DNA of 64,000 bases from an uncultured Candidatus Saccharibacteria bacterium (GTDB taxonomy: Bacteria; Patescibacteriota; Saccharimonadia; CAILAD01; BJGX01). The stretch covers positions 922-64,921 of the forward strand of contig CAYMHI010000004.1 of NCBI GenBank assembly GCA_964390265.1. Reading direction: 5' to 3'. This document shows positions 8,687 through 42,179 of this stretch, in pieces. Numbering within the stretch: position 1 is the first letter of the stretch; every line of letters begins with the position of its first letter. The notes under the pieces were generated by a model. The model did not search any database. It was not told where the DNA came from and worked only from the letters and a program-made list of their open reading frames with translations. The translations under genes were made by a program, and so were the position numbers.

Positions 8687-8689
8687 AGT

Positions 8690-21731: not shown

Positions 21732-22724
21732 TTAAAACTGCTCCAAAAAGTTAAATTGGGGTCGCCACAGTTCTCGAAGATCATTGAGTCCATATTTTAT
21801 TACTGCAAAGCGCTCAGCGCCCCAACCGAATGCAAAACCAGAATACTTGTCGGCATCAATACCGCCATTTTTTAATACTCGAGGGTGCACCATGCCTGCT
21901 CCGCCTAGCTCTAACCACTTGCCATTGTAGCGACAATCTAGCTCCACTGAGGGCTCTGTATATGGAAAGTAGCTGGCTCGAAATCTAATATCAACATCCG
22001 GGCCTAATAAACTCCTTACTACTCTCAATAATGTACCTTTCAAGTCAGACATAGCCACCCCCTCTCCTACTACTAGCCCCTCTACTTGGTTGAATATCCA
22101 TGCGTGAGTAGCGTCTTCGTCTTCATTTCTAAATACTCTACCAGGTACAATTATTTTAAATGGTGGCTTGTTTTTCTCCATAAATCGAACCTGCATACCA
22201 GATGTATGAGATCTAGGTAAAAGGTTCATTTTGCCGTTATCGATATAAAAAGTGTCCTGCATATCCCTAGCCGGGTGCGACGCAGGCATATTCAACGCTT
22301 CAAAATTATACCAATCAGTCTCAATTTCTGGACTATCAACAATTGCAAAACCTAGCTCGGTAAATACTTGGTAGGTCTGCTCTAGAACCATACTTGTAGG
22401 ATGTATATGACCATAGTCCTGGCCAAAAGCATTGGTAGTTGCACTTAAGTCTAGCGGCTTAAATTTTGATGAAGTCAAAACTCTCACTTTTGCAGAATTA
22501 TAAAGTTCCTCTAATGCACTTCGCACATCGTTAAGCCGCTTTCCGTTCAATGCCCTATCTTTTTGCGACATGTTCTTAAGCTCTTTTAGGTCCATTACGA
22601 TGTGGCTTTTACCAGATAAATATGTAGCCTTAGCCGCATCTAACTGCTGTTTATTTTTTGCATTAAAAAACTGGCTTTGGGCTTGTTTTAAATAATTTGA
22701 TGATAAAGATGGTAATTTATTCAT
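21732..22724 (-). CDS. pheS: phenylalanine--tRNA ligase alpha subunit
   Basis: Class II motifs: FRNEDEDATHAWIFNQVEG, FPYTEPSVELD, GWGAERFA. Confidence 0.93.
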   Translation of the reverse strand: MNKLPSLSSNYLKQAQSQFFNAKNKQQLDAAKATYLSGKSHIVMDLKELKNMSQKDRALNGKRLNDVRSALEELYNSAKVRVLTSSKFKPLDLSATTNAFGQDYGHIHPTSMVLEQTYQVFTELGFAIVDSPEIETDWYNFEALNMPASHPARDMQDTFYIDNGKMNLLPRSHTSGMQVRFMEKNKPPFKIIVPGRVFRNEDEDATHAWIFNQVEGLVVGEGVAMSDLKGTLLRVVRSLLGPDVDIRFRASYFPYTEPSVELDCRYNGKWLELGGAGMVHPRVLKNGGIDADKYSGFAFGWGAERFAVIKYGLNDLRELWRPQFNFLEQF

Positions 22725-22728
22725 ATAA

Positions 22729-23118
22729 TTAGTTAGTTTTTCTGGTTCTAAAATATAATTCTATTAGTAATACAGTAAGCGCAAAAAGTATAATATCTCT
22801 AAAACTTAAACTTTTAAGGGTAGATAGAGCTATAAGCAAGGTGGCTGTGAAGCCTAGTAAGAACCCTGTTCTTACAGATCCTAATAGAATCTTTCTGGGC
22901 TCATTTCTTTTTTCTTCACTGCGCAGCTTCCATAAATAATCTATTAAGGTGATTAAACTAGTTAAGCCTATTAGAATACCTATAAACCAAAAAGTTATTA
23001 ATGCCGGACCCAACTCTTTTGGTGTGAAGCCAAATACTATATATAGCACAAAGGTTAACGATGCCAAAAGAAGCACCGATAAAACCGAAATACTTATAAT
23101 AATTGTTTTGCCTCTCAT
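22729..23118 (-). CDS. small 4-TM membrane protein
   Basis: 129 aa, four hydrophobic helices; stop lies 4 nt before the pheS start (same operon). Confidence 0.5.
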   Translation of the reverse strand: MRGKTIIISISVLSVLLLASLTFVLYIVFGFTPKELGPALITFWFIGILIGLTSLITLIDYLWKLRSEEKRNEPRKILLGSVRTGFLLGFTATLLIALSTLKSLSFRDIILFALTVLLIELYFRTRKTN

Positions 23119-23512
23119 AGTGTAACTCTATTATCTGACAAAACTACGAGTTTGTACATATATCTGTGCTTTGTGATTATCGTACATAATAATTACTCTA
23201 ATATTGCATACATTATTTAATTGTCTAATCTGACATTACTTACGAACACTATTATTATTCTTTATTTTTAGACTTGTCATTAACAATTCTTTAATAATTA
23301 AAATCTGAACTTTATATGCATCCTTCAATAATACTGCGACGATTTACCCCACGTAGTTATAGTTATTATATTTACCATATAGCTAGGGCTGTGGATGAGT
23401 GTGTATAAGTATAGTATTTGTTGTCAGCATAACTTGACAAGTTTTTGTTAAATTATGCATAATTTTGTTAAACTTTATTAACATAACTACTACTATGTTA
23501 TACACATACTAA

Positions 23513-23540
23513 AAAACCACCCTGTGGGTGGTTAATCACT
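23513..23540 (-). terminator. rho-independent terminator (CCACCC-ACA-GGGTGG + T6) on minus strand
   Basis: Minus-strand reading UUAACCACCCACAGGGUGGUUUUUUAG, inside the 1-kb intergenic region downstream of trpS. Confidence 0.5.
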
Positions 23541-24117
23541 AAATAATAACTAATATGGTTACGGGCCAACGTATCTGCCCAAAAAAGAAAAACTTTAAGT
23601 GGCACACGCTGGCCCGTGGTAGTCTACCCTAAAAGTAATTCTAGAGCTGACATTGCTGTCAAGACACGATATTAATAGCATATACCTAGCTATATAATCG
23701 CAGTTGACGACTTCCCTACCACTCTTTTGGCAGTCCAGTCAGATAGTGCGCCCCAAAAATATAGAGCGCAATATCTGACTGTCTCCGGCGGAATGATAGA
23801 CAATACATATATTTTAGAAGGTACAAAACGGAAAATATATGTATTAAAACCTCGAACAGTAGGGAAAAACTGGCCATAAAAAGCAAGGGGGCTGCCTTTT
23901 ATGAACCAGGTGTCCCCTACCATTTGGTTATATAAATCTTATCGCGAGATCATAAGATTAGATATTGTAGAACGAAAAAATGTATGTGTGGCATATCTTT
24001 TTTGTTTTTGTTTTTAAAGAACTTACTAATAGATACATTGTATCAAATGCTTATGCTTATGTCAATATTTATTAACGTAATTATTACAATCTAACCTGTT
24101 AATCTATAATGACTATT

Positions 24118-25104
24118 TTACAACAATCCAATTTTTTCTTTGACTTCTGCTAGTTTTTTGTTGGCAATTACAGAAGCTTTGTTGCTTCCTTCTTCGATAA
24201 TCGTAATTAATTTGCCCTCATCTTTTCTAAAGCCATTAAATTTATTCTGCAGGTTGGTTAGTTTTAGGGCTACAAGGTCACCGAGGTCGGTTTTAAGCTC
24301 TCCATATCCTTTGTTGGCATATAGATTTACGATATTGTCGGTACTTTTTTCGGAAAAACCGCTATAGATATCTATTAAGTTTGAGATTTCTGGCTTATTT
24401 ACCTTATCATAGATGATTTTATTATCTGAATCTGTAACTGCTCTCTTAAATTTCTTTTTCACCATTTCTTCGGGTTCAGAGAGCATTACAAAGCTATCTG
24501 GGCTGTCAGATTTACTCATTTTTTTACTTGGATCATCTAAGCCCATTACCCTAGAGCCTGTTTTTGGAATAACCGCTTCTGGCACTACAAAAGTATTTCC
24601 ATATAGCTTATTGAATCTATTGGCGATATCTCTAGTAAGCTCGATATGCTGTAGCTGATCTTCGCCTACCGGAACCTCATTGCTCTCATACAGAAGTATG
24701 TCTGCAGCCATTAGTACCGGGTAGTTAAACAGCCCAACCAACTGGCCCTCTTTGCCGAGCTTACGAGACTTATCCTTATACTCTGTCATTCTAGAGAGTT
24801 CTCCCATTGTAGTGTAGTTGTTTAATATCCAACTTAACTCTGCGTGGGCCGGCACCATAGATTGCACTAGTAGTATAGATTTTTGTGGATCGATACCTAC
24901 AGTTAAGAGCCAAGCTATAAGGTCGAAAGTTCTTTTTCTTAACTCTGCAGGATCTTGTCTAACAGTAATAGCGTGTGAGTTTGGCACAAAGAAAATAGTT
25001 CTTGCATTATCTTTTTGGTATTTTGGCCAATGCTTCATTGCCCCCAAATAATTACCAATTGTCATATCGCCAGATGGCTTTAGTCCTGAAAATACTGTTT
25101 TCAT
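24118..25104 (-). CDS. trpS: tryptophan--tRNA ligase
   Basis: Class I HIGH-like (DMTIGNYLGA) and KMSKS (KKMSKSDS); typical 328-aa length. Confidence 0.92.
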   Translation of the reverse strand: MKTVFSGLKPSGDMTIGNYLGAMKHWPKYQKDNARTIFFVPNSHAITVRQDPAELRKRTFDLIAWLLTVGIDPQKSILLVQSMVPAHAELSWILNNYTTMGELSRMTEYKDKSRKLGKEGQLVGLFNYPVLMAADILLYESNEVPVGEDQLQHIELTRDIANRFNKLYGNTFVVPEAVIPKTGSRVMGLDDPSKKMSKSDSPDSFVMLSEPEEMVKKKFKRAVTDSDNKIIYDKVNKPEISNLIDIYSGFSEKSTDNIVNLYANKGYGELKTDLGDLVALKLTNLQNKFNGFRKDEGKLITIIEEGSNKASVIANKKLAEVKEKIGLL

Positions 25105-25121
25105 AAATTTATTATATCAGA

Positions 25122-26213
25122 TTATTCTTCGTTCTGTGGTTTTTCTACCTCTAGCAGCTCCACTACAGCCTCAGAGGAAGCAATTTTCACAACATCTTTA
25201 TCTATCTTCTTTAGCTCTTTATGAGCAGTGTTATAGTGATTTACGGTTGTACCGAGTGAATTGCCGAGTTTGTGCATATACTCATCGTAGCTTCCCAGGT
25301 GTTTGCCTAGCTGACCTACGCGCTTTTGAATCTCTTTAGCCTGCCCTTCTATCTGAAGGCTCCTAAGACCTTGCATTACTGTTTGAAGGTAGGCCAAAAA
25401 TGAGGTTGGTGATACTATAATTACTCGCTTTTCCCTAAAAGCATACTCTATAAGGTCTTGAGAGCTAGTCTGCATTGCACCGATTTTGTTAACCAGCAGA
25501 TCGTAATAGATTGCCTCTGACGGAATAAACATGAAGGCGAAATCCATTGTTCCCATACTGGGCTGAATATATTTGGCTGTCTCATCTATTCGAAGCTTTA
25601 AGTCAGCTTTAAATTGTTTAATAATGTTCGCTTTTGATGTAATATCTTTTGTCTCAATTAACCTATTATAGTTCTCTAAGCTAAACTTAGAATCTACAGG
25701 TAATACCTTGCCATCTTGCAAAAATATCGCGGCGTCTACTATCATGTCTTTGCCGTTTTCACTTCTGCCAATTTTGTACTGTAACTTAAATTGTTCTGGT
25801 GGCAACACATTTTCCAGTACTGAGCCTAAGTAGTATTCGCCCAATACGCCTCGCTGTTTTGGATTAGAAAGCACGTTTTGCAGCATTTTTAGTTCGTCTG
25901 CCACATCTACTACTCTCTTATTAGTCTCATCGAGCTTAGTGAGCCTATTATTGACGTCTGCTATCAACTTGGCCGATTCACTTAACTGTTTTTGCACCGA
26001 CTCACTGTTGCTACTTTGCGAGCGATCTATACGATCATGTATTTGAGTTTGTGATTGTACAAGGGTTTGATTGAGCCCTTGAATGTCTTGTTTTAGTGAA
26101 GACACCGCTCCATCGTCTTTAATAGATTGTAGGCGTGCATTGAAAGACATAAAAAGAAGTATAAAGCCTATCACCATAATAAATAGCAATATAAACAATA
26201 AAATCGTAATCAT
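25122..26213 (-). CDS. rmuC: DNA recombination protein RmuC
   Basis: N-terminal TM, long coiled-coil, C-terminal RmuC region (FAFMFIPSEAIYYDLL). Confidence 0.75.
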   Translation of the reverse strand: MITILLFILLFIMVIGFILLFMSFNARLQSIKDDGAVSSLKQDIQGLNQTLVQSQTQIHDRIDRSQSSNSESVQKQLSESAKLIADVNNRLTKLDETNKRVVDVADELKMLQNVLSNPKQRGVLGEYYLGSVLENVLPPEQFKLQYKIGRSENGKDMIVDAAIFLQDGKVLPVDSKFSLENYNRLIETKDITSKANIIKQFKADLKLRIDETAKYIQPSMGTMDFAFMFIPSEAIYYDLLVNKIGAMQTSSQDLIEYAFREKRVIIVSPTSFLAYLQTVMQGLRSLQIEGQAKEIQKRVGQLGKHLGSYDEYMHKLGNSLGTTVNHYNTAHKELKKIDKDVVKIASSEAVVELLEVEKPQNEE

Positions 26214-26289
26214 TACTTTAGTATACCTTATTTAGTTACGAACACAAGCCGAATACATAAATTTAAATAAGTATTACCAGTACAAGTAT

Positions 26290-26655
26290 CTAAAATTCTT
26301 CAGTAAGCAGACGCTGTAGAGTTTTGAAAATAGCTAACACAAAAAACACAAAAGTGAGTAGCAGTAGTCCGGTCTGTAAGTATGCAACCAGTAAAAAGCC
26401 GAAACCTGTCGGTGAATTATCGCCTGTAAATAAAATACCATACATAACGAATTTTACTATTTGAACCAGTATAAAACATACAACCGCATATATTAGGTAT
26501 TTTTTAGCCTGAGTGAGGGCTAGTTTTTGTGCACGTTGTTTAGATCTTATTTTGGCTTTTTGGGCGCGAGAGTAACCAGAGCTTACTGAAGACTTTATGT
26601 TTGCCCGTTTACCTGACTTAACTTTACGAGATTTATTCTTCATATCACGAAACAT
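26290..26655 (-). CDS. small basic membrane protein
   Basis: Lys/Arg-rich N-terminal 50 aa followed by two TM helices. Confidence 0.45.
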   Translation of the reverse strand: MFRDMKNKSRKVKSGKRANIKSSVSSGYSRAQKAKIRSKQRAQKLALTQAKKYLIYAVVCFILVQIVKFVMYGILFTGDNSPTGFGFLLVAYLQTGLLLLTFVFFVLAIFKTLQRLLTEEF

Positions 26656-26818
26656 TATACCATAACAACTAAGTTATGGCACAAAATGAACATATAAATC
26701 ATGCCGTAAATATTAATTTATGTGCTAAATAATACCCAGTATATATTAGCTCATAATTATTATTTTGCTTATAGGGCGGGCTTTATTGCATTGCAAGTAG
26801 TAATTTGTTGAACACATA

Positions 26819-27334
26819 TTATATTCGCTTCATCCACCATGGCGTTTTGGGCACTTTGCGATATTTAGTATGAACGATTTTACTGGCTGTTTGTGTGTTA
26901 AGTCCAAAGTACTTGTCTACAATAGCTGCCCAATTATTTTTTAGCCATGTTTGTTGTTTAATATACAACTCTTCAAGCCCTCTCTCGGCAAATTCTCTCC
27001 TTATAACTCCACCGCTGTGTGGGTGTTTTTGTTTTTGCTGGTAGGGCGAGTTAAAACCATGAGCGTAATGTGTCATCTCGTGCACTATGGTAGCCACTAC
27101 AATATACTCAGGTATGTCTGTGTCTTGATAGATTGGATTAATAGTGATGATGGTACTATGTCGATCTTTTGGGTCGAGACTTATTGAACCGAGTCGACGT
27201 TTGGCTTTTCTGCCGTACCGAATGTGTACGACATTACTCTGCTGTATATCTATAAAATACTTATACCATATATCGGCTAACATATTTTCTAGCCACTCTT
27301 GGTCTCGTATGCTGTCTTTCACTAGCATATTCAC
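26819..27334 (-). CDS. SprT-like zinc metallopeptidase-fold protein
   Basis: YGRKAKRRLGSISLDPKD...ITINP...ATIVHEMTHYAHGF...HSGGVIRREF matches the SprT family HExxH...H arrangement. Confidence 0.5.
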   Translation of the reverse strand: MNMLVKDSIRDQEWLENMLADIWYKYFIDIQQSNVVHIRYGRKAKRRLGSISLDPKDRHSTIITINPIYQDTDIPEYIVVATIVHEMTHYAHGFNSPYQQKQKHPHSGGVIRREFAERGLEELYIKQQTWLKNNWAAIVDKYFGLNTQTASKIVHTKYRKVPKTPWWMKRI

Positions 27335-30174
27335 TACAGCAATCCTTCAAATTTTATTCTACTGCTACCTTTTTCGCTAAATTTATGGCCTCTAATGCCC
27401 GCTACTAGCTTTTCCAGGGTTTCATATATTTTAAGGTTATCTATGTAGGTTGTGGAGGCCAAAATATCTTGCTCAACAAAATATAGGCTAACAGAGTTAA
27501 CTGGTGATTGGTGCTGTTTTTCCCAGGCTAGAGCGTATATTTGCATCTGTAAACTGTCTTTGAGCTTTTTTTGAGCGTTATTTTGAGAGCCCACCTCGCC
27601 AGTCTTAAAATCTCGTATTTCAATTTTACCGCCCCGGTCATAAATGGCATCATAGCGACCGCTGATATTTAGTTTTAAGCTTTCTAGCCTCAGTATGAAG
27701 GGTTTTTCTACTTCTTTTGGTATAACTTTCAACCCCTCCTCTTTTTTGTAGAACCTGGCCAATGCTTTGCGGCCTGACTCGTAGCGTTCTTTCTCATGAT
27801 CTAACGAGACAAACCCCTCGCTTTTCCAACGGTTTTCAAAACTTAGCAAGAGTTGACTAAGATTAACCGACTCCCCACTTAATCTGGCTCGATAGTAGAG
27901 TTCAATAGCCGCATGAATAGCTGAGCCGTACACTAGAGCATGAAATGGCCCCTTGGGTAGGCTGAGAATATCGAAATACCAGAATTCTATAGGTGAACGT
28001 GCGTACGATGCTAGCTGGTTGGTACTAAGATTGAGCCAGCCCCGCTCATCGGTAAATTTTGACAATGGATCAAAGTTTTGTCTCTGCGGTAATTGGGCAA
28101 ATGACTTAATAGCTTCTATTTGAGCGCGATTGTCCTGTGCTGGCGCAGATACCACCTCTCCTGTAGCCTCCTGTATAAACCTTGAAGGTTTTTTAAGTCG
28201 TTTGCCTCCATGATCATATGAGGTTGTAAGATATAGATAGGTTTTAGCTCGAGTCATACCAACATAAAAAAGTCGTCTCTCCTCGTGAATATGCCAAGGT
28301 ATAGATTCGTCATTTTCTGGTAGCAGTCCTTTTGGAACAGCAATTTTATCACCCATGTTTCTGGACGGAAATGTTTGCTCGGTAAGATCGACAATAAAGA
28401 CAGCTTCAAACTCCAACCCCTTAGCCTTATGTATAGTCATAATTGATACAGAATTTGCGTCTAAAGGTGATGACTGGATTAATATATCTACGTCGCTCTC
28501 TCGTATTCTATTTATGTGTCTCCAAAAGCCAAAAATATGAGGGTCATGGGGGCTTGATAATTCAAACTCCTTAATTACTACAAAAAACTGTGAGATATTT
28601 TGTATTTTTTGTACAGCCCTATGATCAGTATCAGCATCTGCTATCAAGCGCTTGAGGTAACCAGTTGATTCAATAAACTTATATAATATTTGACCAGCCG
28701 ATGAACTCAACACCTCACCCCGGTAATCCTGAAGCAAACCCAGCGCAGAGCTAATTGCTTCTGGTAGATCGTCTTGACTTGCCAGATAGCTCTCAAGACT
28801 TTCGTGACTTCTAGTAGCTTGTGCGCTGTATTTTGCAATTTGATCAAATGGTACTCTATATAAATCTGATACCAATAACCCGTAGAGTGCATCAGATGCG
28901 TTAGGGTCATTTAGAGCGCGTACAAAATGGAGCAATACTTTTATTTCGGCCTGTTCAAAAAGATTCTGACTTTCCGACACCACGTAAGGTATTGATAGCT
29001 TCTCTAGTGCATGAGCTACCTCTTGTGCTTGGCTATTTTTTCTTAATAAAATGGCGATGTCGTTATATTTTAAGTCTTTAGCGCTATGTAGCGCTTGTAT
29101 TTGACTAGCAATATAGTTCATTTCCTCAACAATTGTTGTATTTGCCTCAACATTAACCTCTGAATCACCAGCGACACCTTTAAGCTTTTTACTTAAGCCG
29201 TTCTCTATTTCTAGTCGGTATGGATTGTTACCCTGAATTAAACCATAAGCACAATCTAATATTTTTTGCTTTGAGCGGTAATTAATATTTAGCACAACTT
29301 GCTTGGCCTCGGGGAAATCTTTGGTAAATTTTAAAATATTTGAGATAGCGGCTCCTCTAAATCGATAGATAGACTGGTCATCGTCGCCCACCACCATAAT
29401 ATTTCGTAGTTCTTTAGACAACAATTTTACAAGATAATTCTGGGCATAATTGGTGTCCTGAAATTCATCTACCAAGACGTAGCGATACTTTTCTTGGTAC
29501 TTACGCAAGATGCTTTTGTTTTTTTCTAGCAATTCTATGGTAAGTATTATCTGATCGCCATAATCAATTAAACTCTTCTCTTGCGTCAACTTCTGATACT
29601 TAGAGTATATTTGCTCTAGCTCCTTAAGCTGAAGAAGTTCATCTTTCTCTAGTGACTTATCAAGCAGCTGCTTTTTCACGAATTTGCTAAACTTGATACT
29701 TGTAATATTCTCGTCCTTGAGTCTAGAGATAAATTTCAAGCAGGCATCTACAAAACTAAACGGATTACCTAGTGATTTATAATAATTTAGTTTTAGACCA
29801 TCTATGACCTCTTGCATTACAATAGCCTGCTGAAAATTCGACATCACCACAAAATCCGACGGCAACCCTACAGCAAATCCACTCTCGCGCAGAATTTTAT
29901 CACCTAGAGCATGGAATGTCGAAATTTCGGCATCGTTGTATCCATAAGGCAATATTTCGTCTACTCTATCTTGCATTTCGGCTGCAGCCTTCTCGGTAAA
30001 AGTAAGGGCAAGAATATTTTCAGAGTGTATCTTTTTATTCTGAATTAAATTAGCAATTCGAAGGCTAATAACAGCAGTTTTACCAGTTCCGGCTCCGGCC
30101 ACCACAATAGCTGGACCATTAAAATGCTCGACGGCTTGTTTTTGCGCAGCGTTAAGTTTAGTTTTTCCACCCAT
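27334..30174 (-). CDS. UvrD/PcrA-family SF1 helicase fused to a C-terminal PD-(D/E)xK (RecB/Cas4-like) nuclease domain
   Basis: N-terminal Walker A AGAGTGKT; helicase motifs (VDEFQDTN, GDDDQSIYRFRGA, TIHKAKGLEF); C-terminal ...GRYDAIYDRGGKIEIRDFKTG. Confidence 0.85.
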   Translation of the reverse strand: MGGKTKLNAAQKQAVEHFNGPAIVVAGAGTGKTAVISLRIANLIQNKKIHSENILALTFTEKAAAEMQDRVDEILPYGYNDAEISTFHALGDKILRESGFAVGLPSDFVVMSNFQQAIVMQEVIDGLKLNYYKSLGNPFSFVDACLKFISRLKDENITSIKFSKFVKKQLLDKSLEKDELLQLKELEQIYSKYQKLTQEKSLIDYGDQIILTIELLEKNKSILRKYQEKYRYVLVDEFQDTNYAQNYLVKLLSKELRNIMVVGDDDQSIYRFRGAAISNILKFTKDFPEAKQVVLNINYRSKQKILDCAYGLIQGNNPYRLEIENGLSKKLKGVAGDSEVNVEANTTIVEEMNYIASQIQALHSAKDLKYNDIAILLRKNSQAQEVAHALEKLSIPYVVSESQNLFEQAEIKVLLHFVRALNDPNASDALYGLLVSDLYRVPFDQIAKYSAQATRSHESLESYLASQDDLPEAISSALGLLQDYRGEVLSSSAGQILYKFIESTGYLKRLIADADTDHRAVQKIQNISQFFVVIKEFELSSPHDPHIFGFWRHINRIRESDVDILIQSSPLDANSVSIMTIHKAKGLEFEAVFIVDLTEQTFPSRNMGDKIAVPKGLLPENDESIPWHIHEERRLFYVGMTRAKTYLYLTTSYDHGGKRLKKPSRFIQEATGEVVSAPAQDNRAQIEAIKSFAQLPQRQNFDPLSKFTDERGWLNLSTNQLASYARSPIEFWYFDILSLPKGPFHALVYGSAIHAAIELYYRARLSGESVNLSQLLLSFENRWKSEGFVSLDHEKERYESGRKALARFYKKEEGLKVIPKEVEKPFILRLESLKLNISGRYDAIYDRGGKIEIRDFKTGEVGSQNNAQKKLKDSLQMQIYALAWEKQHQSPVNSVSLYFVEQDILASTTYIDNLKIYETLEKLVAGIRGHKFSEKGSSRIKFEGLL

Positions 30175-34032: not shown

Positions 34033-34068
34033 ATATTTAAAATCTTAGGCTGCGGTATAATAGGTACT

Positions 34069-34512
34069 ATGAAAATAATAGCAACCAATAAAAGAGCTCG
34101 TTTTGACTACGATATTACCGATAAAATCGTGGCAGGTATAGTTTTGGCCGGACACGAGGTTAAAAGCGTTAAGAGTGGCTCTGTGGGCCTCAAGGGTAGC
34201 TTTGTAAGTTTTGTGGGCAATGAAGCTTATTTGTCTAATGCCCACATAACCCAATACAAACAGGCATCCAGCCTAAAGAGCTACGAACCAACCGCTAGCC
34301 GTAAACTACTAATGCACCGTAAAGAGCTAGATAGGCTACTGGGAGCACTAAAAAGCGAGGGCAAAACCGCTGTACCTACTGCAATTGGTATTGATCGTGG
34401 CTTAGTAAAGGTAGAGATAGGTATTGGACGCGGTAAAAAGCGCCATGACAAACGTGAGACTATTAAAAAACGTGACATGCTACGCGATGCCAACCGAGAC
34501 GTCAAAAAGTAG
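34069..34512 (+). CDS. smpB: SsrA-binding protein SmpB
   Basis: MKIIATNKRARFDYDI...GHEVKSVK...LLMHRKE... typical SmpB; start is the internal Met of the 33790..34512 ORF (the upstream extension lies in the argS-smpB divergent region). Confidence 0.9.
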   Translation: MKIIATNKRARFDYDITDKIVAGIVLAGHEVKSVKSGSVGLKGSFVSFVGNEAYLSNAHITQYKQASSLKSYEPTASRKLLMHRKELDRLLGALKSEGKTAVPTAIGIDRGLVKVEIGIGRGKKRHDKRETIKKRDMLRDANRDVKK

Positions 34513-36036: not shown

Positions 36037-36294
36037 TTAGTCGCGCGGTTGTTGCGGACGAGCTTCTGACACAGTAATAGCACGGCCATCGATTTCTTTG
36101 CCGTTGGTAGCTTCGATGATTGCGTTGAGATCAACGCTCTCTGCTAGTTCGACAAAACCAAAACCCTTACTACGACCATTCATACGATCAGTGATCACGT
36201 TGGCAGATACTACCTCACCGTGCTCACCAAATATTTCAGCAAGCTGCTCAGATGTAACGCTGTATGGCAGGTTGCCAACAAATAACTTTTTCAT
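36037..36294 (-). CDS. RRM-type RNA-binding protein
   Basis: RNP-2 KLFVGNLPY and RNP-1 KGFGFVEL motifs; 85 aa. Confidence 0.85.
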   Translation of the reverse strand: MKKLFVGNLPYSVTSEQLAEIFGEHGEVVSANVITDRMNGRSKGFGFVELAESVDLNAIIEATNGKEIDGRAITVSEARPQQPRD

Positions 36295-36487
36295 GTATTT
36301 AGATGGTTCTTTCTTTTAATAATCTTGGAGCAGGACGACCTTCTTTTCTTACCAAGTCATCTTGAAACAAGAACATAGAAGAAAGAGAAACCTACTTGGT
36401 GAGTATTATAGCACAATCGAGAGAAGATTACTAGTAGATAGCCTAAAATAAAAATCACCTCTAGCTTATCACTTGAGGTGATGATGA

Positions 36488-36742
36488 TTAATCGCCGACA
36501 AGGTCGAGAAAGAACTTAAGTCTCTCGGTTTGCTCTGCAGCATGTTGAGGCATTTGCGAGCGTGAAACACTATCTATAGAAAAGCCCTCGGGTGGAAGTG
36601 AATATCCACCTAGAGCTGCATAGTGGGTATAAGGAGTCTTGTTTACTGCTCCACTATTGGTTGAGATGCGGCGATGTTGACCGAACAAATACATACGAAC
36701 CCCGGCAACAAACATTGCGAACAATACCAATACAACCATCAT
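36488..36742 (-). CDS. small membrane-anchored hypothetical protein
   Basis: N-terminal TM; followed on the minus strand by a hairpin + T-run terminator (36448..36482). Confidence 0.4.
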   Translation of the reverse strand: MMVVLVLFAMFVAGVRMYLFGQHRRISTNSGAVNKTPYTHYAALGGYSLPPEGFSIDSVSRSQMPQHAAEQTERLKFFLDLVGD

Positions 36743-36869
36743 ATTCCCTCCCTTAAGAGTAGGTGCTAGACTAGCGCTTAATATAGCATGTAGTACTTTA
36801 GAAAGCCAGCATTACAGTCGTTACATACTATAATAAAAACCTCATTGCACATTGGCAATGAGGTAATAA

Positions 36870-37463
36870 TTAGTCTACTTTGGAACGCATTTTCTGGGCA
36901 AATCGCTCGGCGATGGTTTGAGCGCCGGCATTGTTATTCGGCACAACCTGAATATTACCATAAGTAGGTACTATACCGGGCTCTGTTACCCGCAAGTACC
37001 AGCCGCAACGGCCATTAGCTCGCATCAGAGCGATTACCTGGGGCCAACCACGAAACATTGCCAGCTTGTGGCATGGCTCACGAGGTTTAGATACTTCTAA
37101 TTCTGCAGCTCCCCATTGCCATCTATCACCAATGCGAACATCGGCTTCCAAAATGCCTTGTACGAGTAAATTTTCGCCAAAAGATCCGGGTGGCAACACC
37201 TGGCCATAAACGGCCTGCCAGTACGCATAATGCTCGCTGGGGTACACATAAACGGCCATTTCGTTACCACCATGCAACTGCCTGCCATCATCCTTGGGGC
37301 GTGTATCGACCTGTTGATCGCCGTACAAATTGGTGTAGGTTAGTAAAATTTCTCTACCCTCTACCGGCGACTTGCCAATACTTGAGTATACCGGCGCACC
37401 GTTGCGCTCACCAATTACCTGTGGCAAGCCCGTGCAGACTGCCACTATTTTGACTTTTCTCAT
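36870..37463 (-). CDS. MOSC-domain protein (YiiM-like)
   Basis: MOSC beta-barrel signature GENLLVQG...VRIGDRWQWGAAELEVSKPREPCHKL; GC-richer than flanking core genes. Confidence 0.7.
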   Translation of the reverse strand: MRKVKIVAVCTGLPQVIGERNGAPVYSSIGKSPVEGREILLTYTNLYGDQQVDTRPKDDGRQLHGGNEMAVYVYPSEHYAYWQAVYGQVLPPGSFGENLLVQGILEADVRIGDRWQWGAAELEVSKPREPCHKLAMFRGWPQVIALMRANGRCGWYLRVTEPGIVPTYGNIQVVPNNNAGAQTIAERFAQKMRSKVD

Positions 37464-37545
37464 TTACTGCCCTCTCTGTATAGGTACGAGCTGTATTGTA
37501 CAGTATATAAATAAAAACCCCAAGATTTTCTTGGGGTATGACGTT
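37464..37545 (-). promoter_or_regulatory. terminator-promoter-leader cassette, copy 1 (hairpin CCCCAAGA-n5-TCTTGGGG + U-run; overlapping TTGGGG-17-TACAAT with TGn)
   Basis: Near-identical to 38353..38440; hairpin at 37506..37524; precedes MOSC gene start. Confidence 0.5.
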
Positions 37546-37548
37546 GCT

Positions 37549-38346
37549 TTAGCTCGGCTGTTCTGCCAACTGCCTTTTGTGCTGCGCAATAACCTCGGTG
37601 TGAGCCTCGAGGATTTCTAGCTCTTTTACAACTTCGCTATACGGCATATTGCTACAGCTAGCATCAGAGCTCCGCTTTGGGGTTGGCATAGATATGGGCG
37701 AGAATACCACCAAGCCACCTGAGAACTTACAGCTCACCCCTAGAGCCTGCTTCAAAGCATTGAGCTTGGGTAGAGCATCGGAGTCAAGTGACTGGTTGAT
37801 CCAGTCTGGTACCCAATAGTGGTCTTCGGCGATTATCATTTGGGGGTGAGTAACCCAAAACCCTTCACGTTTAAGAGTTACCCTCAAGCCCCCGGGTTCA
37901 ATCCCCTGGTGGGCATAGATATCTTCTATTTCAGCCAAGCGAGCATCGTACGCATCAACAAACTCTCTATACGATTTCACTTGACCAACTCTAACCAGCT
38001 TGCACAGATTACATCGAATATCACTATTTTGGCTAAGTACGACCATCAGCTTTTTCCACGGGTTGTGAATATTACAGGTATAGGTTATTTGGTTTTTACC
38101 ACAGCCCACACAAGGGCCCAATAGCGTTACTCTGCCATCGAAAGCATTTTTGCGCTTAGGTGCGGACGCGCCGCTACTATAGCCCCTCACCTTGTAGCCG
38201 TTTATCTCAATCCCTTGCAGCCACAATCCTCTTTTGGCGGCCTCATCGAGAGTCAGCTGCACTTCACCAAAAAAATCATATTGCTGTTCTGATGGTGCAG
38301 GCATGCTTGCTCTTCTACCTTGATCGGCTCCAAACACTCTTCGCAT
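37549..38346 (-). CDS. Cys4 zinc-ribbon protein, paralog 1 (unknown function)
   Basis: FDFFG...TLD N-terminus; CVGCGK...RCNLCK zinc ribbon; C-terminal W-rich region homologous to the 38444..39265 gene. Start taken at ATG 38346 (a TTG 6 nt upstream is also possible). Confidence 0.55.
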   Translation of the reverse strand: MRRVFGADQGRRASMPAPSEQQYDFFGEVQLTLDEAAKRGLWLQGIEINGYKVRGYSSGASAPKRKNAFDGRVTLLGPCVGCGKNQITYTCNIHNPWKKLMVVLSQNSDIRCNLCKLVRVGQVKSYREFVDAYDARLAEIEDIYAHQGIEPGGLRVTLKREGFWVTHPQMIIAEDHYWVPDWINQSLDSDALPKLNALKQALGVSCKFSGGLVVFSPISMPTPKRSSDASCSNMPYSEVVKELEILEAHTEVIAQHKRQLAEQPS

Positions 38347-38352
38347 AGTCAA

Positions 38353-38440
38353 CTTATCTCTCCTTGGTAGGTACTAGGCAGTATTGTACAGTATATAAAT
38401 AAAATCCCCAAGAGTTTCTTGGGGTATTGGACGAGATAAT
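38353..38440 (-). promoter_or_regulatory. terminator-promoter-leader cassette, copy 2
   Basis: ~50 nt almost identical to 37464..37545 (TATTGTACAGTATATAAATAAAA-CCCCAAGA...TCTTGGGGTAT); hairpin 38405..38424; contains the GUACCUACCAAGGAG leader. Confidence 0.5.
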
Positions 38441-38443
38441 TAT

Positions 38444-39265
38444 TTACGGCTTGCTTCTCGACACTTGATGAGCCTGCTGAATAGCTTGGTGGGCTTGGTA
38501 CTTTTGGAGTAGATCCTGAGCCCGTTCGAGATCAATAAAGCCTCGGATAAAAAACAGATTATCCCACGTGGGGATTTGGCAGTATATCAAAAATCCTTCC
38601 TCAACCCTTAACTCCACCCCAAGCTCATTTGCAAAAGCTTGGTGTTGCTGCAGAGCTTGAGCGCTACCGGTTTGATCGATCCAGTTCGGGAACCAACCTG
38701 GCCAGCTACTATTGGTTAGGATACAGATGCCAGGGTGTTTTACTACACGCTTATCGAATGTAGGCTCAGCCTGGCCTTGACCGACGAAAGCCTGCACAAT
38801 TGCAGCCCTGCGTACCTGGCAGGCATCAACGTAATCTGCAAGCTTCCCAACGGTGCTAGACGTAACATTATTACACATCTCGCAACGAAAGCTGGAGTCG
38901 TTACGCCTATCACGCTCAATAATACTTGCAGGTTGGTTGATGTGATAGTTTTTTTTCACCCGACTGTGTCCGCAGTACCAACAGTCAGCTTCAACGACTA
39001 CCCTGCCTTCAAATGGACGTAGTCGCCATAAATCGGGAATGTGTTGATTACTACCCGAACCAACTCCAGCACGTACAAGATACTCACCAATTTCTAGCCC
39101 GCTGCCATATAGATATTTTTTGGTTTGATCGTCTAGCGTGACGCTGGCAATACCAAAAAAATCAAAAACCGTTTGTTCTGGCAGCTCGACAACAGCAATA
39201 TCGCTTGTAGCTTTTCCTCCTGGCGTTGATGTTTCATCTGATTTGTTTCTGCCCCTAAATGCCAC
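38444..39265 (-). CDS. Cys4 zinc-ribbon protein, paralog 2 (unknown function)
   Basis: FDFFG...TLDD; CWYCGH...RCEMCN; homologous C-terminal region. Start reassigned to GTG 39265, 10 nt after AAGGAGG; the ORF-track ATG at 39310 lies upstream of the conserved leader and SD. Confidence 0.55.
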   Translation of the reverse strand: MAFRGRNKSDETSTPGGKATSDIAVVELPEQTVFDFFGIASVTLDDQTKKYLYGSGLEIGEYLVRAGVGSGSNQHIPDLWRLRPFEGRVVVEADCWYCGHSRVKKNYHINQPASIIERDRRNDSSFRCEMCNNVTSSTVGKLADYVDACQVRRAAIVQAFVGQGQAEPTFDKRVVKHPGICILTNSSWPGWFPNWIDQTGSAQALQQHQAFANELGVELRVEEGFLIYCQIPTWDNLFFIRGFIDLERAQDLLQKYQAHQAIQQAHQVSRSKP

Positions 39266-39322
39266 TAGCAACCTTCCTCCTTGGTAGGTACACCTGAGCG
39301 ACTTGCCCATAAATCATTGGCT

Positions 39323-39351
39323 ATTGTATGCACATAAGCTGTTATTGTCAA
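39323..39351 (-). promoter_or_regulatory. consensus sigma70-type promoter TTGACA-17-TACAAT
   Basis: Read on the minus strand: TTGACA ataacagcttatgtgca TACAAT, ~55 nt upstream of the GTG start of the 38444..39265 gene. Confidence 0.5.
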
Positions 39352-39492
39352 TCTACTCAGCAACATGCTACAATCCTACCCAAGAGTCTAATATGTGCAT
39401 TCATGGCCAATGGGGTTACCCGAGGCTACCCGGCTCTTACTGCACCTACCCACCCACCATAGCCAGTGGCGTATGCCGAGGCGATTGGAGAA

Positions 39493-40026
39493 ATGAACAT
39501 GACAATGACCAAGAGTTTTTACACCGATTGGCTGCTTAGCAAATTGCGTGGCGACGAGATAGTGTTGCGCATGAATGCGAGTACCCAGCAGTATAAGCAG
39601 CGCGCCAATATTGCCCGCGGTGAAGCATTTGCCTACTACTCAGATGCCGAGATGCCTATGGCCTGCCACATTCTCTACCGCGCATGGGTACAGCCAGATG
39701 GCAAGAATTACCTCTACGATCTCATTCAGACACCTTTCCCCCATGCTACGGCTGAGTGGGAAAATACAATCATGGAGATCATCAAAAACTGGAGTAGTGC
39801 GTGGCTAGCTGATGAAAGTAATGTTTTTACTCTGCAGACACCATTCAATCAAATGGTGGTCAAATCGCACCCCACTGTGCTAACCCACTTGGCGCGAATG
39901 CACGGTATGCTAGTATATCGCCCAAGCGACCCATTCGCGGCGGTACTCAGAGACATTGCCGCTAAGCGACTAGATGCCGTCATCAGAAATGGTGGCCGCG
40001 ACTGGGCCAGTGCCCTAGGTATGTAA
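39493..40026 (+). CDS. hypothetical protein (orphan, GC-rich islet)
   Basis: Start placed at the ATG cluster after GGAG (39487); no recognisable domain. Confidence 0.45.
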   Translation: MNMTMTKSFYTDWLLSKLRGDEIVLRMNASTQQYKQRANIARGEAFAYYSDAEMPMACHILYRAWVQPDGKNYLYDLIQTPFPHATAEWENTIMEIIKNWSSAWLADESNVFTLQTPFNQMVVKSHPTVLTHLARMHGMLVYRPSDPFAAVLRDIAAKRLDAVIRNGGRDWASALGM

Positions 40027-40148
40027 ACCTTACCCCGATGTATTTCGGGGCTTTTTTATATAAAACTTATTAAAAAGGCTATGCTTGTTATTTCTTATCT
40101 AGATATGATAGAATATGCAAGTCATACTGTCGAGCGTAAGGCAAATAG

Positions 40149-40571
40149 ATGGATCTCAAACCACTACCTAATAATGGCGATGTATCGCCAGAAGAGTTTA
40201 AAAGGCTCTTTGAAGAACGTCTGGGCAACCTATACTCACGAGCAATGAGCGCCTTGATGACCTTGGGTGCCATGCATTCATTTAGCGTCGCCAATTGCAT
40301 TCATCTTGGTTTGCAAAAAGGAAATGTTGAGATAGTGGTAGAGAAAATAGAACAATGGTGTGAACTTTTCCCGAAAGCACCAGATGCAATTACGGCACAT
40401 GTGGATACTAAGCTTTTCTTTGATATTTTGTATCCAAGACTATTTATGACCCCCCATGATACCATTGACGGCCTAGGGCCATTTGAGGTGGTTGGTGAAT
40501 CTAAAACAAACAGGTATTTAACATACGCACCAATGAGCAGCGAACCCAAACTTTGGGTGCCTGGCTCCTAA
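40149..40571 (+). CDS. hypothetical protein (orphan)
   Basis: 140 aa, no recognisable domain; followed by terminator hairpin 40577..40612. Confidence 0.45.
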   Translation: MDLKPLPNNGDVSPEEFKRLFEERLGNLYSRAMSALMTLGAMHSFSVANCIHLGLQKGNVEIVVEKIEQWCELFPKAPDAITAHVDTKLFFDILYPRLFMTPHDTIDGLGPFEVVGESKTNRYLTYAPMSSEPKLWVPGS

Positions 40572-40576
40572 AAATA

Positions 40577-40612
40577 CAATCTCTAGTAATCAAACTAGAG
40601 ATTTTTATTTTA
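40577..40612 (+). terminator. rho-independent terminator (AATCTCTAGT-loop-ACTAGAGATT + T-run)
   Basis: 10-bp perfect stem followed by TTTTATTTTA. Confidence 0.6.
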
Positions 40613-40709
40613 TGAATATTCGAAGGCTTTTACCTGCTAAATATATTTTAGCTGTCTAAAAAAATGGCTTTAGTATTTAACTAAAACCATTAATACCCTA
40701 CTCATCAAT

Positions 40710-41066
40710 TCAGTTGGGGCCGCCAAAAAACCCAATACAAACTCCAACCGATGGCACCTCGGCCCCTGGCAAGTGGGAGCATAAATAGTAAATAGCATCG
40801 GTCATCTCATCTTCAATCTCTTCTAGATCACCGTCACGTTCACGAGTCCACCACGCCATACAACTAAACCCAATATCTACCGGCATACTGCTTGTAGGGA
40901 GAGCCTTGTAGACCGTTACCTGCTGCCCTGGTTGCATAGTCTCACCCCAGAATTCGTTGAAAAGTGCGGCAGTAATCTGTTCGACTAGGCGTTCAAAATC
41001 ATCTCCCCAACACTTTTTTACTGCAGCATCGCCCTTGGGCGTTCTCATTTGGTGTATGTGTGGCAT
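40710..41066 (-). CDS. hypothetical protein (orphan)
   Basis: 118 aa; 5' leader carries CACCUACCAAAAGGA, related to the motif of neighbouring genes. Confidence 0.45.
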   Translation of the reverse strand: MPHIHQMRTPKGDAAVKKCWGDDFERLVEQITAALFNEFWGETMQPGQQVTVYKALPTSSMPVDIGFSCMAWWTRERDGDLEEIEDEMTDAIYYLCSHLPGAEVPSVGVCIGFFGGPN

Positions 41067-41239
41067 GTGCTATCCTTTTGGTAGGTGCTTGATTACTGGC
41101 ATATAATACACTTAGTTTGAAATATTTTCAAGCAATATAAGAAAGGTGAAGTAGTAATAATAGGTAGTAAAACAGCTCATAGAATATTTTCTACGAGCTG
41201 TTACAGGGCTAGCTGCCCGGGCAAACTAGGGCGATTTGT

Positions 41240-41614
41240 CTATACTACAACCTCACCTGTCACCATACAGTCAGTACTGATGGCTATACCTACTGTTAAT
41301 TCACCAAATATGATATTGGTGAAAATGACACGTACTTCTTCGGGGTCAATGCCTTCAATGGTGAATTCGATTGCACGAGGATCATCTGGGTCAAAATGAG
41401 TGGTTACTTGCCGAAAAACACCCAGGCATCCAACTATAATATCACCAACTTCAAACAATGCCCCAGATTTTACAAGCTCATCGAGCTTGGCGCTTGGAAA
41501 GTCCATACTCGGCAGAAGATCTGGCATGACTAGCTCTACATTGGTCTGAACTCTCCAGCGATTATCGCCGTCTACGTTTGTGTATGCGGTGATTTGAATA
41601 TTTTCTGCCATCAC
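41240..41614 (-). CDS. hypothetical protein (orphan)
   Basis: 124 aa; leader CCUAUCUAAAAGAGAAGGG resembles the MOSC gene leader. Confidence 0.45.
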   Translation of the reverse strand: MMAENIQITAYTNVDGDNRWRVQTNVELVMPDLLPSMDFPSAKLDELVKSGALFEVGDIIVGCLGVFRQVTTHFDPDDPRAIEFTIEGIDPEEVRVIFTNIIFGELTVGIAISTDCMVTGEVVV

Positions 41615-41756
41615 CCTTCTCTTTTAGATAGGCTACATTGGCAAACAATACTATATCATTAAATACATCAGATTCCAACCATAACAATTAGACGTTTGGG
41701 CAGTCAAAGTGACTGCAAAATTACATGTTGTTGTACATTTGCCCGTAATTACTCAT

Positions 41757-41789
41757 CAAAAAAAGACCAGTTTATATCTGATCTTTTTT
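41757..41789 (-). terminator. rho-independent terminator immediately 3' of tmRNA
   Basis: Minus-strand AAGAUCAG-AUAUAA-ACUGGUCUU + U7, directly after the encoded CCA. Confidence 0.55.
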
Positions 41790-42179
41790 TGGTGGAGCTG
41801 GAGGGAATCGCACCCTCGTCCACGAGGCTTAACGATATATCGTCTACAAGCATAGTTGATTTAAGATTGTTTTAAAAGTTATCTACCCCATTAATCAACA
41901 AACAGGTAAATCGCTTCTTAGAGCTATAGTCTTAGACGCTCTCGGCTCTAAGCAAGATCGTAGCAACCAGATAATTGGCGCCTACTTACTAATCTGGCGT
42001 CGGTAAGTGAGACGGCACACTCAATTAAGCGTATGCTGGTGCAAAGCTAGGAGTGCGTACTGCATTCACTAGATTGCGCATAAGTGTATTTGCACTTAAA
42101 TTGTTGGAACGGCTAACGTGCATTCCAGGTCGGCTCGCAAATATATTTTAAGGTCCCCATGTCGAAGCTTAGCAGCCCC
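41790..42179 (-). ncRNA. ssrA: transfer-messenger RNA (tmRNA, SsrA), ~390 nt, CCA encoded
   Basis: 5' GGGGCUGCUAAGCUUCGACAUGGGG; 3' GGACGAGGGUGCGAUUCCCUCCAGCUCCACCA (E. coli: GGACGCGGGUUCAACUCCCGCCAGCUCCACCA). Acceptor stem GGGGCUG/CAGCUCC has the G3-U70 alanine identity pair. Internal frame ...AVRTPSFAPAYA-UAA is a candidate tag. Confidence 0.85.

Follow-up and report, generated by a model that had tools for sequence, protein, structure and literature searches.

Genomic islands at the gene for transfer-messenger RNA (tmRNA; gene ssrA) are reportedly the subject of Williams's 2003 'Traffic at the tmRNA gene'. The signature of islands integrated into tRNA and tmRNA genes is the basis of Islander (Hudson, Lau and Williams 2015, PMC4383910), and entails an intact tRNA or tmRNA gene (tDNA) at one end, a displaced, directly oriented fragment of the 3' end of that gene at the other, a tyrosine recombinase integrase, and variation in presence at the site among related genomes. 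Plasticity zones, or flexible genomic islets, are another described class, with variable content between conserved flanks. Here we analyze a block of eight open reading frames (ORFs) that lies directly 3' of ssrA in a 64,000-nt stretch of Saccharibacteria DNA (the window; GC content 0.409), and we compare it with both classes. Saccharibacteria and other bacteria of the candidate phyla radiation (CPR) have very small genomes, and to our knowledge there are few documented cases of where or how CPR bacteria acquire new genes.

A first-pass annotation of the window had described the block as a GC-richer islet at an integration hotspot, and had taken it for either an old, decayed island or a set of lineage-specific accessory genes. 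The block is old and lineage-specific, but this genome bears no mark of an ssrA integration event, either recent or of the classical type, and the block is not an active or classical ssrA-integrated island. On balance, we lean towards an old, selectively maintained accessory islet, which was built piecemeal in a plasticity zone between the ssrA terminator (~41754) and the promoter of a conserved RNA-binding-protein gene (~36431), and whose GC-rich core is probably foreign.

Results

The block is flanked by two conserved genes. On its right, an intact ssrA (41790–42179, minus strand; tag ANTLMRNLVNAVRTPSFAPAYA) was identified by ARAGORN and by Rfam (RF00023, 110 bits, positions 1–374 of 374), in agreement with the 3' end at 41790 in the first-pass annotation. 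The gene is on the minus strand, hence its 3' end faces lower coordinates and abuts the block. Its intrinsic terminator (inverted repeat I12; 41754–41789, minus strand) forms the right boundary of the variable interval. On the left is the gene for an RNA-binding protein with an RNA-recognition motif (RRM; 36037–36294, minus strand; Pfam RRM_1, E=2.7e-23), which has 92% amino-acid identity to its ortholog in the distant relative L093. The RRM promoter (TGCTATAAT) and a ~115-nt 5' leader (36295–36430, minus strand) form the left boundary, and similarity to all relatives ends upstream of ~36431–36445. The eight ORFs in between comprise a MOSC enzyme, two Zn-ribbon paralogs (Zn1 and Zn2) and five orphans with no family match, the same inventory as had been read from the letters. 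Most of these genes have their own promoter-like site, a short leader and an intrinsic terminator.

The age of the block is evident from a sister species. Two of its contigs, L097 and L003, share a 1030-nt overlap with 99.9% identity and are thus from a single organism; the samples of this species are ERZ27258478 and SRR14932648. Their gene order is argS ... aldolase, RRM, ORF100, MOSC, Zn1, Zn2, ORF186, ORF118, ORF124, ORF148, the tmRNA terminator and a 23-nt tmRNA remnant, with homology to the window breaking at window position 41749. Nucleotide identity to the window is 84.05% in the core (6.9 kb) and 84.07–86.3% in the block. The block was thus in place before the split from the sister species (84% nucleotide identity), has since diverged like the core and has been inherited vertically. 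The ratios of nonsynonymous to synonymous substitution rates (dN/dS) between the two species are 0.10–0.22 for six block genes (MOSC 0.11, Zn1 0.22, Zn2 0.22, ORF186 0.12, ORF118 0.10 and ORF124 0.10), compared to 0.04–0.13 for RRM and aldolase. The existence of orthologs and the low dN/dS indicate that these six are real genes, older than the species split and kept by selection. Sister-species orthologs are lacking for the remaining two, the putative ORF84 and ORF140.

The more distant relatives have other content at this site. L093, a 48-kb contig from JGI, preserves the complete gene order of the window along ~27 kb (~26.3–53 kb of the window), with protein identities of 42–92%, mostly 54–77%. 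To the left of the interval both have, in this order, helicase, argS, smpB, aldolase and RRM, and to the right tmRNA, VanY-like, three glycosyltransferases, GalT, Mg-chelatase-like, DUF4446, bactofilin, IF3, L35 and L20. DNA homology ends at window position 36416 and restarts at 41790, and in place of the block L093 has 1248 nt with one unrelated orphan, ORF340. A third relative, L092 (sample ERZ27258567; 72% nucleotide identity; VanY 80% at the amino-acid level), aligns from the tmRNA 3' end rightwards; the alignment stops at 41787, with other genes beyond. The block is absent from L093 and present with core-like divergence in the sister species, and in L092 other genes adjoin tmRNA. The opening of the synteny gap at the tmRNA 3' end in L093 and L092, together with the narrow distribution of the genes, supports the earlier interpretation; its own refuting observation, the same genes at the same place in related genomes, holds for the sister species but not for the syntenic L093. 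In an all-against-all comparison of the orphans from the window, the sister species, L092 and L093, only Zn1 and Zn2 were related.

Other collections added little at this locus. The best genome matches of the window aldolase are Saccharibacteria metagenome-assembled genomes (MAGs) at 54–60% amino-acid identity. In a GTDB scan with this protein, these closest genomes keep argS, smpB and aldolase together and lose synteny right after aldolase; they have no tmRNA within 10 kb, and are therefore uninformative for the locus. A scan of JGI metagenomes with a 22-mer from the tmRNA tag region gave no match. Ends of Logan contigs at 36368, 41816 and 41793–41794 were considered as island polymorphism and rejected, because they lie in the RRM leader and the tmRNA 3' end, conserved sequences at which co-occurring relatives would break the assembly graph.

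Within the interval, change has proceeded by gene-sized steps. The segment that holds the putative ORF84 (segment 36445–36834, ORF 36488–36739, minus strand, with its own promoter and terminator) is replaced by ~30 nt in the strain contigs L085–L087, and in the sister species the same position holds a segment with ORF100, to which it is unrelated. The ORF140 segment (40078–40664, plus strand; putative ORF 40149–40571, with a promoter-like site and a bidirectional terminator) is missing from L003. Its two junctions are in runs of A, flanked by the terminators of ORF186 and ORF118, which converge. ORF148, found only in the sister species, is inserted at window position 41749, directly past the tmRNA terminator. 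Strain contigs are also mosaic. L085–L087 have 99.5% identity on the RRM side versus 90–95% on the MOSC side, and L098 has 91.7% versus 83.5% across the interval. These mosaic identity levels point to allele exchange by recombination.

Zn1 (267 aa; 37549–38352, minus strand) and Zn2 (273 aa; 38444–39265, minus strand) are a tandem duplication, 888 nt apart. A 50-nt module made of a terminator hairpin and a promoter occurs between Zn1 and MOSC (copy 1, 37490–37539, minus strand) and again between Zn2 and Zn1 (copy 2, 38378–38427, minus strand). The copies, found by the terminator scan and as a direct repeat, are 94% identical and the only two in the window. The leaders of Zn1 and Zn2 (38360–38374 and 39277–39291) share an identical 15 nt, though the proteins are only 28% identical. 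The modules cross-match at 88–90% between the two species, above the genome-wide 84%, which points to strong constraint on, or gene conversion of, these non-coding modules. A 288-aa reading of Zn2 from 39310 is over-extended, since the leader motif and the Shine-Dalgarno sequence (39277–39291) lie inside that longer ORF; gene calls in L001 and L097 give 273 aa.

The leader motif, G[TC]ACCTAY on the minus strand, is found at 36758, 37477, 38366, 39283 and 41080, ahead of ORF84, MOSC, Zn1, Zn2 and ORF118, respectively. It sits ~8–15 nt downstream of the -10 box and directly ahead of the Shine-Dalgarno sequence, and is kept in the sister species for MOSC, Zn1, Zn2 and ORF118. The related pattern RYACCTAYY occurs 23 times in the window versus 8 expected. 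The motif had been described as private to the block: it does precede five of the eight block genes, but it is present also upstream of the argS ORF.

The compositional signal is real and narrower than first described. The region has a GC content of 0.452, the remainder of the window one of 0.405, and the highest GC of all 5-kb windows falls here. GC at third codon positions (GC3) averages 0.455 in the eight ORFs versus 0.362 +/- 0.038 in 44 other ORFs (Mann-Whitney p=6e-5). A plateau of 47–51% GC is confined to ~36.75–40.1 kb and includes the GC-richest gene, ORF186 (GC3 0.57). The part at 40.1–41.8 kb, with ORF140 (GC3 0.40) and ORF124, is at background GC, except that ORF118 is raised. The GC excess that had been assigned to all genes between RRM and ssrA thus holds for this core and ORF118, but not for the remainder. 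By raw tetranucleotide distance the region ranks second in the window (z=2.8). After GC normalization the pattern is not deviant, and the compositional signal is therefore essentially the GC shift; the GC and tetranucleotide check that had been proposed is positive for the first measure but not, once normalized, for the second. The same interval is GC-richer than its genome in the sister species (0.488 versus 0.413) and in L093 (0.43 versus 0.37). Elsewhere in the window, 22500–27500 is the most deviant 5-kb tetranucleotide window (z=3.0), with a GC content of 0.36 and very AT-rich small ORFs.

No trace of an integrating element was recovered from the block. The tmRNA 3'-terminal 25-mer has no second copy within 3 mismatches in the window, and in gapless 15–40-mer scans of both strands the best tmRNA matches equal those of shuffled sequence. 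An 11/15 match to the tmRNA 3' end at 36323, which had been put forward as a weak attachment-site (att) trace, was rejected: shuffled sequence gives 11–12 of 15, several other 11/15 matches occur within the window, and this one sits in the conserved RRM 5' leader, which is present also in a relative that lacks the block. Searches of the eight ORFs against Pfam, PHROGs, PADLOC and NCBIfam found no integrase, transposase, recombinase or phage protein. The block proteins had no PHROG match at E<0.005, and the PADLOC defence models gave a single sub-threshold match (Zn2, E=0.012, 13.6 bits). Scans of IMG/VR found no relatives of ORF186, ORF124 or the L092 recombinase described below, and tblastn against GenBank phages was negative for Zn1, ORF186 and this recombinase. 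The family searches and repeat scans agree with the first-pass annotation, which had recognized neither an integrase, an att repeat nor a mobility gene.

In relatives, ssrA itself has been hit. In the sister species (L003 3958–4020, reverse), a terminator of the window type adjoins no more of tmRNA than its final 23 nt (TGGTGGTGGCGGAAGGAATCGCA), which extend from the T-loop to the CCA. The DNA beyond this remnant is unrelated and encodes a 751-aa fn3 surface protein as well as an orphan. No tmRNA gene is detected by ARAGORN or Rfam in L003, a contig that ends before the expected intact tmRNA and integrase. The tmRNA 3'-terminal 32 nt are identical in the window and L093, whereas the remnant departs from the sequence that these two share at 4 of its 23 positions, which indicates that the remnant is decaying. 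This displaced fragment, of the kind that Islander uses as its signature (PMC4383910), suggests that a second, younger element integrated at the tmRNA T-loop in the sister species. In L092 (region 1100–2983), an ORF for a 519-aa large serine recombinase, with Resolvase and Recombinase domains, terminates within the tmRNA gene. The overlap covers the final 65 nt of tmRNA plus the terminator, and a gene with an HTH_Tnp_1_2 domain adjoins the ORF. According to PMC4383910, serine recombinases were not known to target tRNA or tmRNA genes. In JGI data the enzyme has a single good homolog (L104, 39% identity); its location away from any tmRNA gene gives no support for a recurrent link between the recombinase and tmRNA. 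The view of ssrA as an integration hotspot is borne out in these relatives, by the L003 remnant and the L092 recombinase, but not in the window, which has neither fragment nor integrase.

The terminator of the window ssrA has a further bearing on the origin of the block. It is the same one that stands beside the displaced tmRNA 3' end of the sister species, an argument for a native terminator with the block located past it. A block beyond the native terminator is not the pattern that integration into ssrA produces.

The block proteins are for the most part without relatives. All eight were searched against Pfam, PHROGs, PADLOC and NCBIfam, and a family match was obtained for one, the MOSC protein (197 aa; 36870–37463, minus strand). 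The protein has a nearly full-length MOSC domain (112.5 bits versus the Pfam cut-off of 22.7), and its score against the NCBIfam 6-hydroxyaminopurine reductase (PRK11536) is 104.9 bits, below the cut-off of 294. Pfam detects no C-terminal 3-alpha domain (PF03475) in it, a domain that many more distant homologs carry. It is akin to E. coli YiiM (PRK11536) in the MOSC domain, and differs from it in the sub-equivalog score and the lack of PF03475. The motif PREPCHKL places a cysteine at what we take to be the conserved cysteine position of the family. By analogy to the family, the protein probably reduces N-hydroxylated bases or similar substrates. Homologs at 55–63% identity occur in other gene contexts on many contigs from metagenomes and MAGs, and the named ones (47–48% identity) belong to Saccharimonadales or Patescibacteria. 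Relatives at 59% identity occur in a genome of 50% GC.

Zn1 and Zn2 are 28–29% identical, with invariant CxxC...CxxC and WxPxW motifs. Their family profile retrieves 7 proteins among 1.84 billion representatives, and Zn2 has only 2 homolog clusters among 5.8 billion proteins. Two distant family members, P0130 and P0134, are located on an NCBI contig of 58.8 kb and a contig of 80.5 kb, respectively. Judged from these sequences, the pair belongs to a novel, very rare family of predicted Zn-ribbon proteins. A Foldseek search with an AlphaFold2 (AF2) model of Zn1 (predicted local distance difference test, pLDDT, 74; predicted template modeling score, pTM, 0.64) matched no structure in PDB or BFVD at E<=0.001. 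The predicted zinc ribbon, the long helices and the lack of export signals hint that the two are probably intracellular factors that bind nucleic acids or proteins.

Three of the orphans have sister-species orthologs: ORF186 (175 aa from ATG; 39499–40026, plus strand; 88% amino-acid identity), ORF118 (40710–41066, minus strand; 75%) and ORF124 (123 aa from ATG; 41240–41611, minus strand; 94%). The single-sequence AF2 model of ORF186 was unusable (pLDDT 36), and sequence searches of PDB with the Zn family profile, ORF186, ORF124, ORF118 and ORF140 gave no match. Besides the Zn pair, the orphans fall in clusters of 1–5 sequences at 90% identity, distant homologs not having been searched; the ORF140 cluster is a single sequence. 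ORF84 has an N-terminal hydrophobic helix (Kyte-Doolittle 19-residue maximum of 2.31 at residue 1), the only clear one in the block. The other proteins look soluble and three are acidic, among them ORF118 (isoelectric point, pI, 4.5) and ORF124 (pI 4.1).

The left boundary has features of its own. The RRM leader (36295–36410) of the window shows 100% identity to that of the sister species, though the genomes are only 84% identical, and it is well conserved also in the distant L093. It folds as a long hairpin (minimum free energy of -25.8 kcal/mol, z=-2.5) and has no Rfam match. We consider it a candidate cis-regulatory RNA, possibly for autoregulation of the RNA-binding protein. As to the wider neighborhood, smpB, the gene for the protein partner of tmRNA, is at 34060–34512 (plus strand), 7.3 kb from ssrA, and the arrangement argS, smpB, aldolase, RRM ... 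ssrA is kept in L093. The L093 orphan ORF340 (8420–9442; 340 aa, with a C-terminal CxxCPxxxxC) has no Pfam or NCBIfam match; JGI calls some members of its cluster 'endonuclease III'.

Discussion

The observations above are, in our judgment, best accommodated by an accessory islet that is old and maintained by selection. The GC-rich core (36.75–40.1 kb) would be old foreign DNA, by now partly ameliorated, and the donor may have been a GC-richer Saccharibacterium. The islet would have been assembled piecemeal, by insertion, tandem duplication and recombination, and would not have been delivered as a single ssrA-integrating element. Several points weigh against this account. A donor was not found for any block gene. 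Homologs of the MOSC protein are common in Saccharibacteria at core-like identity, so that this gene could be native and relocated. The GC-normalized tetranucleotide pattern of the region does not deviate, and the background for the composition tests is the 64 kb of the window. The leader motif of five block genes recurs upstream of the argS ORF (34059). The comparison draws on few genomes, namely a sister species, a relative with 72% nucleotide identity and a more distant syntenic relative.

The competing account that survives best, and one that we hold to be unlikely, is a decayed classical ssrA island: one element would have entered at the ssrA 3' end, its integrase and tmRNA fragment would since have been lost or mutated, and the cargo would have been left behind. 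The placement of the block on the tmRNA 3' side and its high GC fit this account, and in relatives ssrA has been targeted, as attested by the 23-nt remnant of the sister species and by the large serine recombinase of L092. The 4 changes in 23 positions of the remnant imply that a fragment older than the species split could be unrecognizable. Yet no fragment above chance and no integrase are found, the GC of the block is internally heterogeneous with piecemeal indels, and the terminator beside the window tmRNA looks native, whereas integration into ssrA would have displaced it.

Still less probable to us is that the block genes are native, fast-evolving and lineage-specific, with GC3 raised by GC-biased gene conversion at a recombination hotspot or by gene-specific constraints. 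The mosaic strain contigs indicate recombination, and a GC-richer interval recurs in three lineages that differ in the genes it holds, both of which such conversion would accommodate. The unremarkable GC-normalized tetranucleotides, the core-like divergence under purifying selection, and the leader motif held in common with the argS ORF are likewise compatible with native genes. These arguments are countered by the content of the interval, which is entirely different in L093 and, beside tmRNA, in L092, and by the seven genes with essentially no relatives among billions of proteins. The GC3 shift of up to 0.2 per gene is also, in our judgment, large for local conversion bias.

A bolder proposal, which we regard as very improbable in its entirety, is that this lineage uses the few dozen bases directly downstream of the ssrA terminator as a dedicated site of gene capture. 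Units complete with promoter, leader, ORF and terminator, several of them with the G[TC]ACCTAY and Shine-Dalgarno leader, would be inserted or swapped there. Joined to this proposal, the L092 enzyme would be a serine recombinase with specificity for the tmRNA gene, and the Zn-ribbon pair would be a new fold family serving the epibiotic lifestyle. The block does not resemble an integron cassette array: unlike the promoterless cassettes of integrons, most block genes carry promoter-like sites, and the sole repeated module is the terminator and promoter pair, in two copies. An integron integrase is absent from the eight ORFs, and attC-type structures were not searched for specifically.

Finally, an assembly or binning artefact, that is, a chimeric insertion in a metagenome-assembled contig, might be suspected from the origin of the window in a 65-kb NCBI contig, its exclusively metagenomic close relatives and a block composition unlike the flanks, but it is effectively refuted, as both junctions are reproduced in assemblies from other samples (L084 independently spans aldolase, RRM, ORF84 and MOSC at 99.1%, and L001 spans 36368–41816 at 100%, 27 nt into tmRNA) and gene order between argS and the tmRNA terminator is the same in the sister species.

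The locus is an alignable example in which the interval between the ssrA terminator and the next core gene is occupied by different lineage-restricted genes in different relatives. Such genes are kept for long under purifying selection, and indels of single genes, tandem duplication and exchange of alleles reshape the interval. Relatives within Saccharibacteria also show the tmRNA gene to be a target of integrative elements. The interest of the case lies in the host group and in the very rare Zn-ribbon family.

Set against the islands described by Islander, the block is alike in its position directly 3' of ssrA, its atypical composition, its orphan cargo and the variation of the interval among relatives. 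Two further likenesses are found in the relatives, namely the displaced ssrA 3' fragment of L003 and the recombinase gene that adjoins tmRNA in L092. Of the elements of the Islander signature, the intact tDNA at one end is present in the window; a displaced tmRNA fragment and a tyrosine recombinase integrase are not, and an apparently native terminator is retained. The block also differs from such islands in being as old as the species split at 84% nucleotide identity and vertically inherited since. With plasticity zones and flexible genomic islets it shares conserved syntenic flanks, variable content, gene-sized indels, mosaic alleles and a wealth of orphans. It is unlike flexible genomic islets in its small size (5.3 kb) and its setting in a reduced genome, for which a related contig of 1.04 Mb suggests the scale; by Pfam, PHROG and PADLOC searches, no defence, surface or mobility genes are recognizable in it. 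The locus adds a further case to a familiar class, that of variable islets next to tmRNA genes, and reveals no new mechanism or system.

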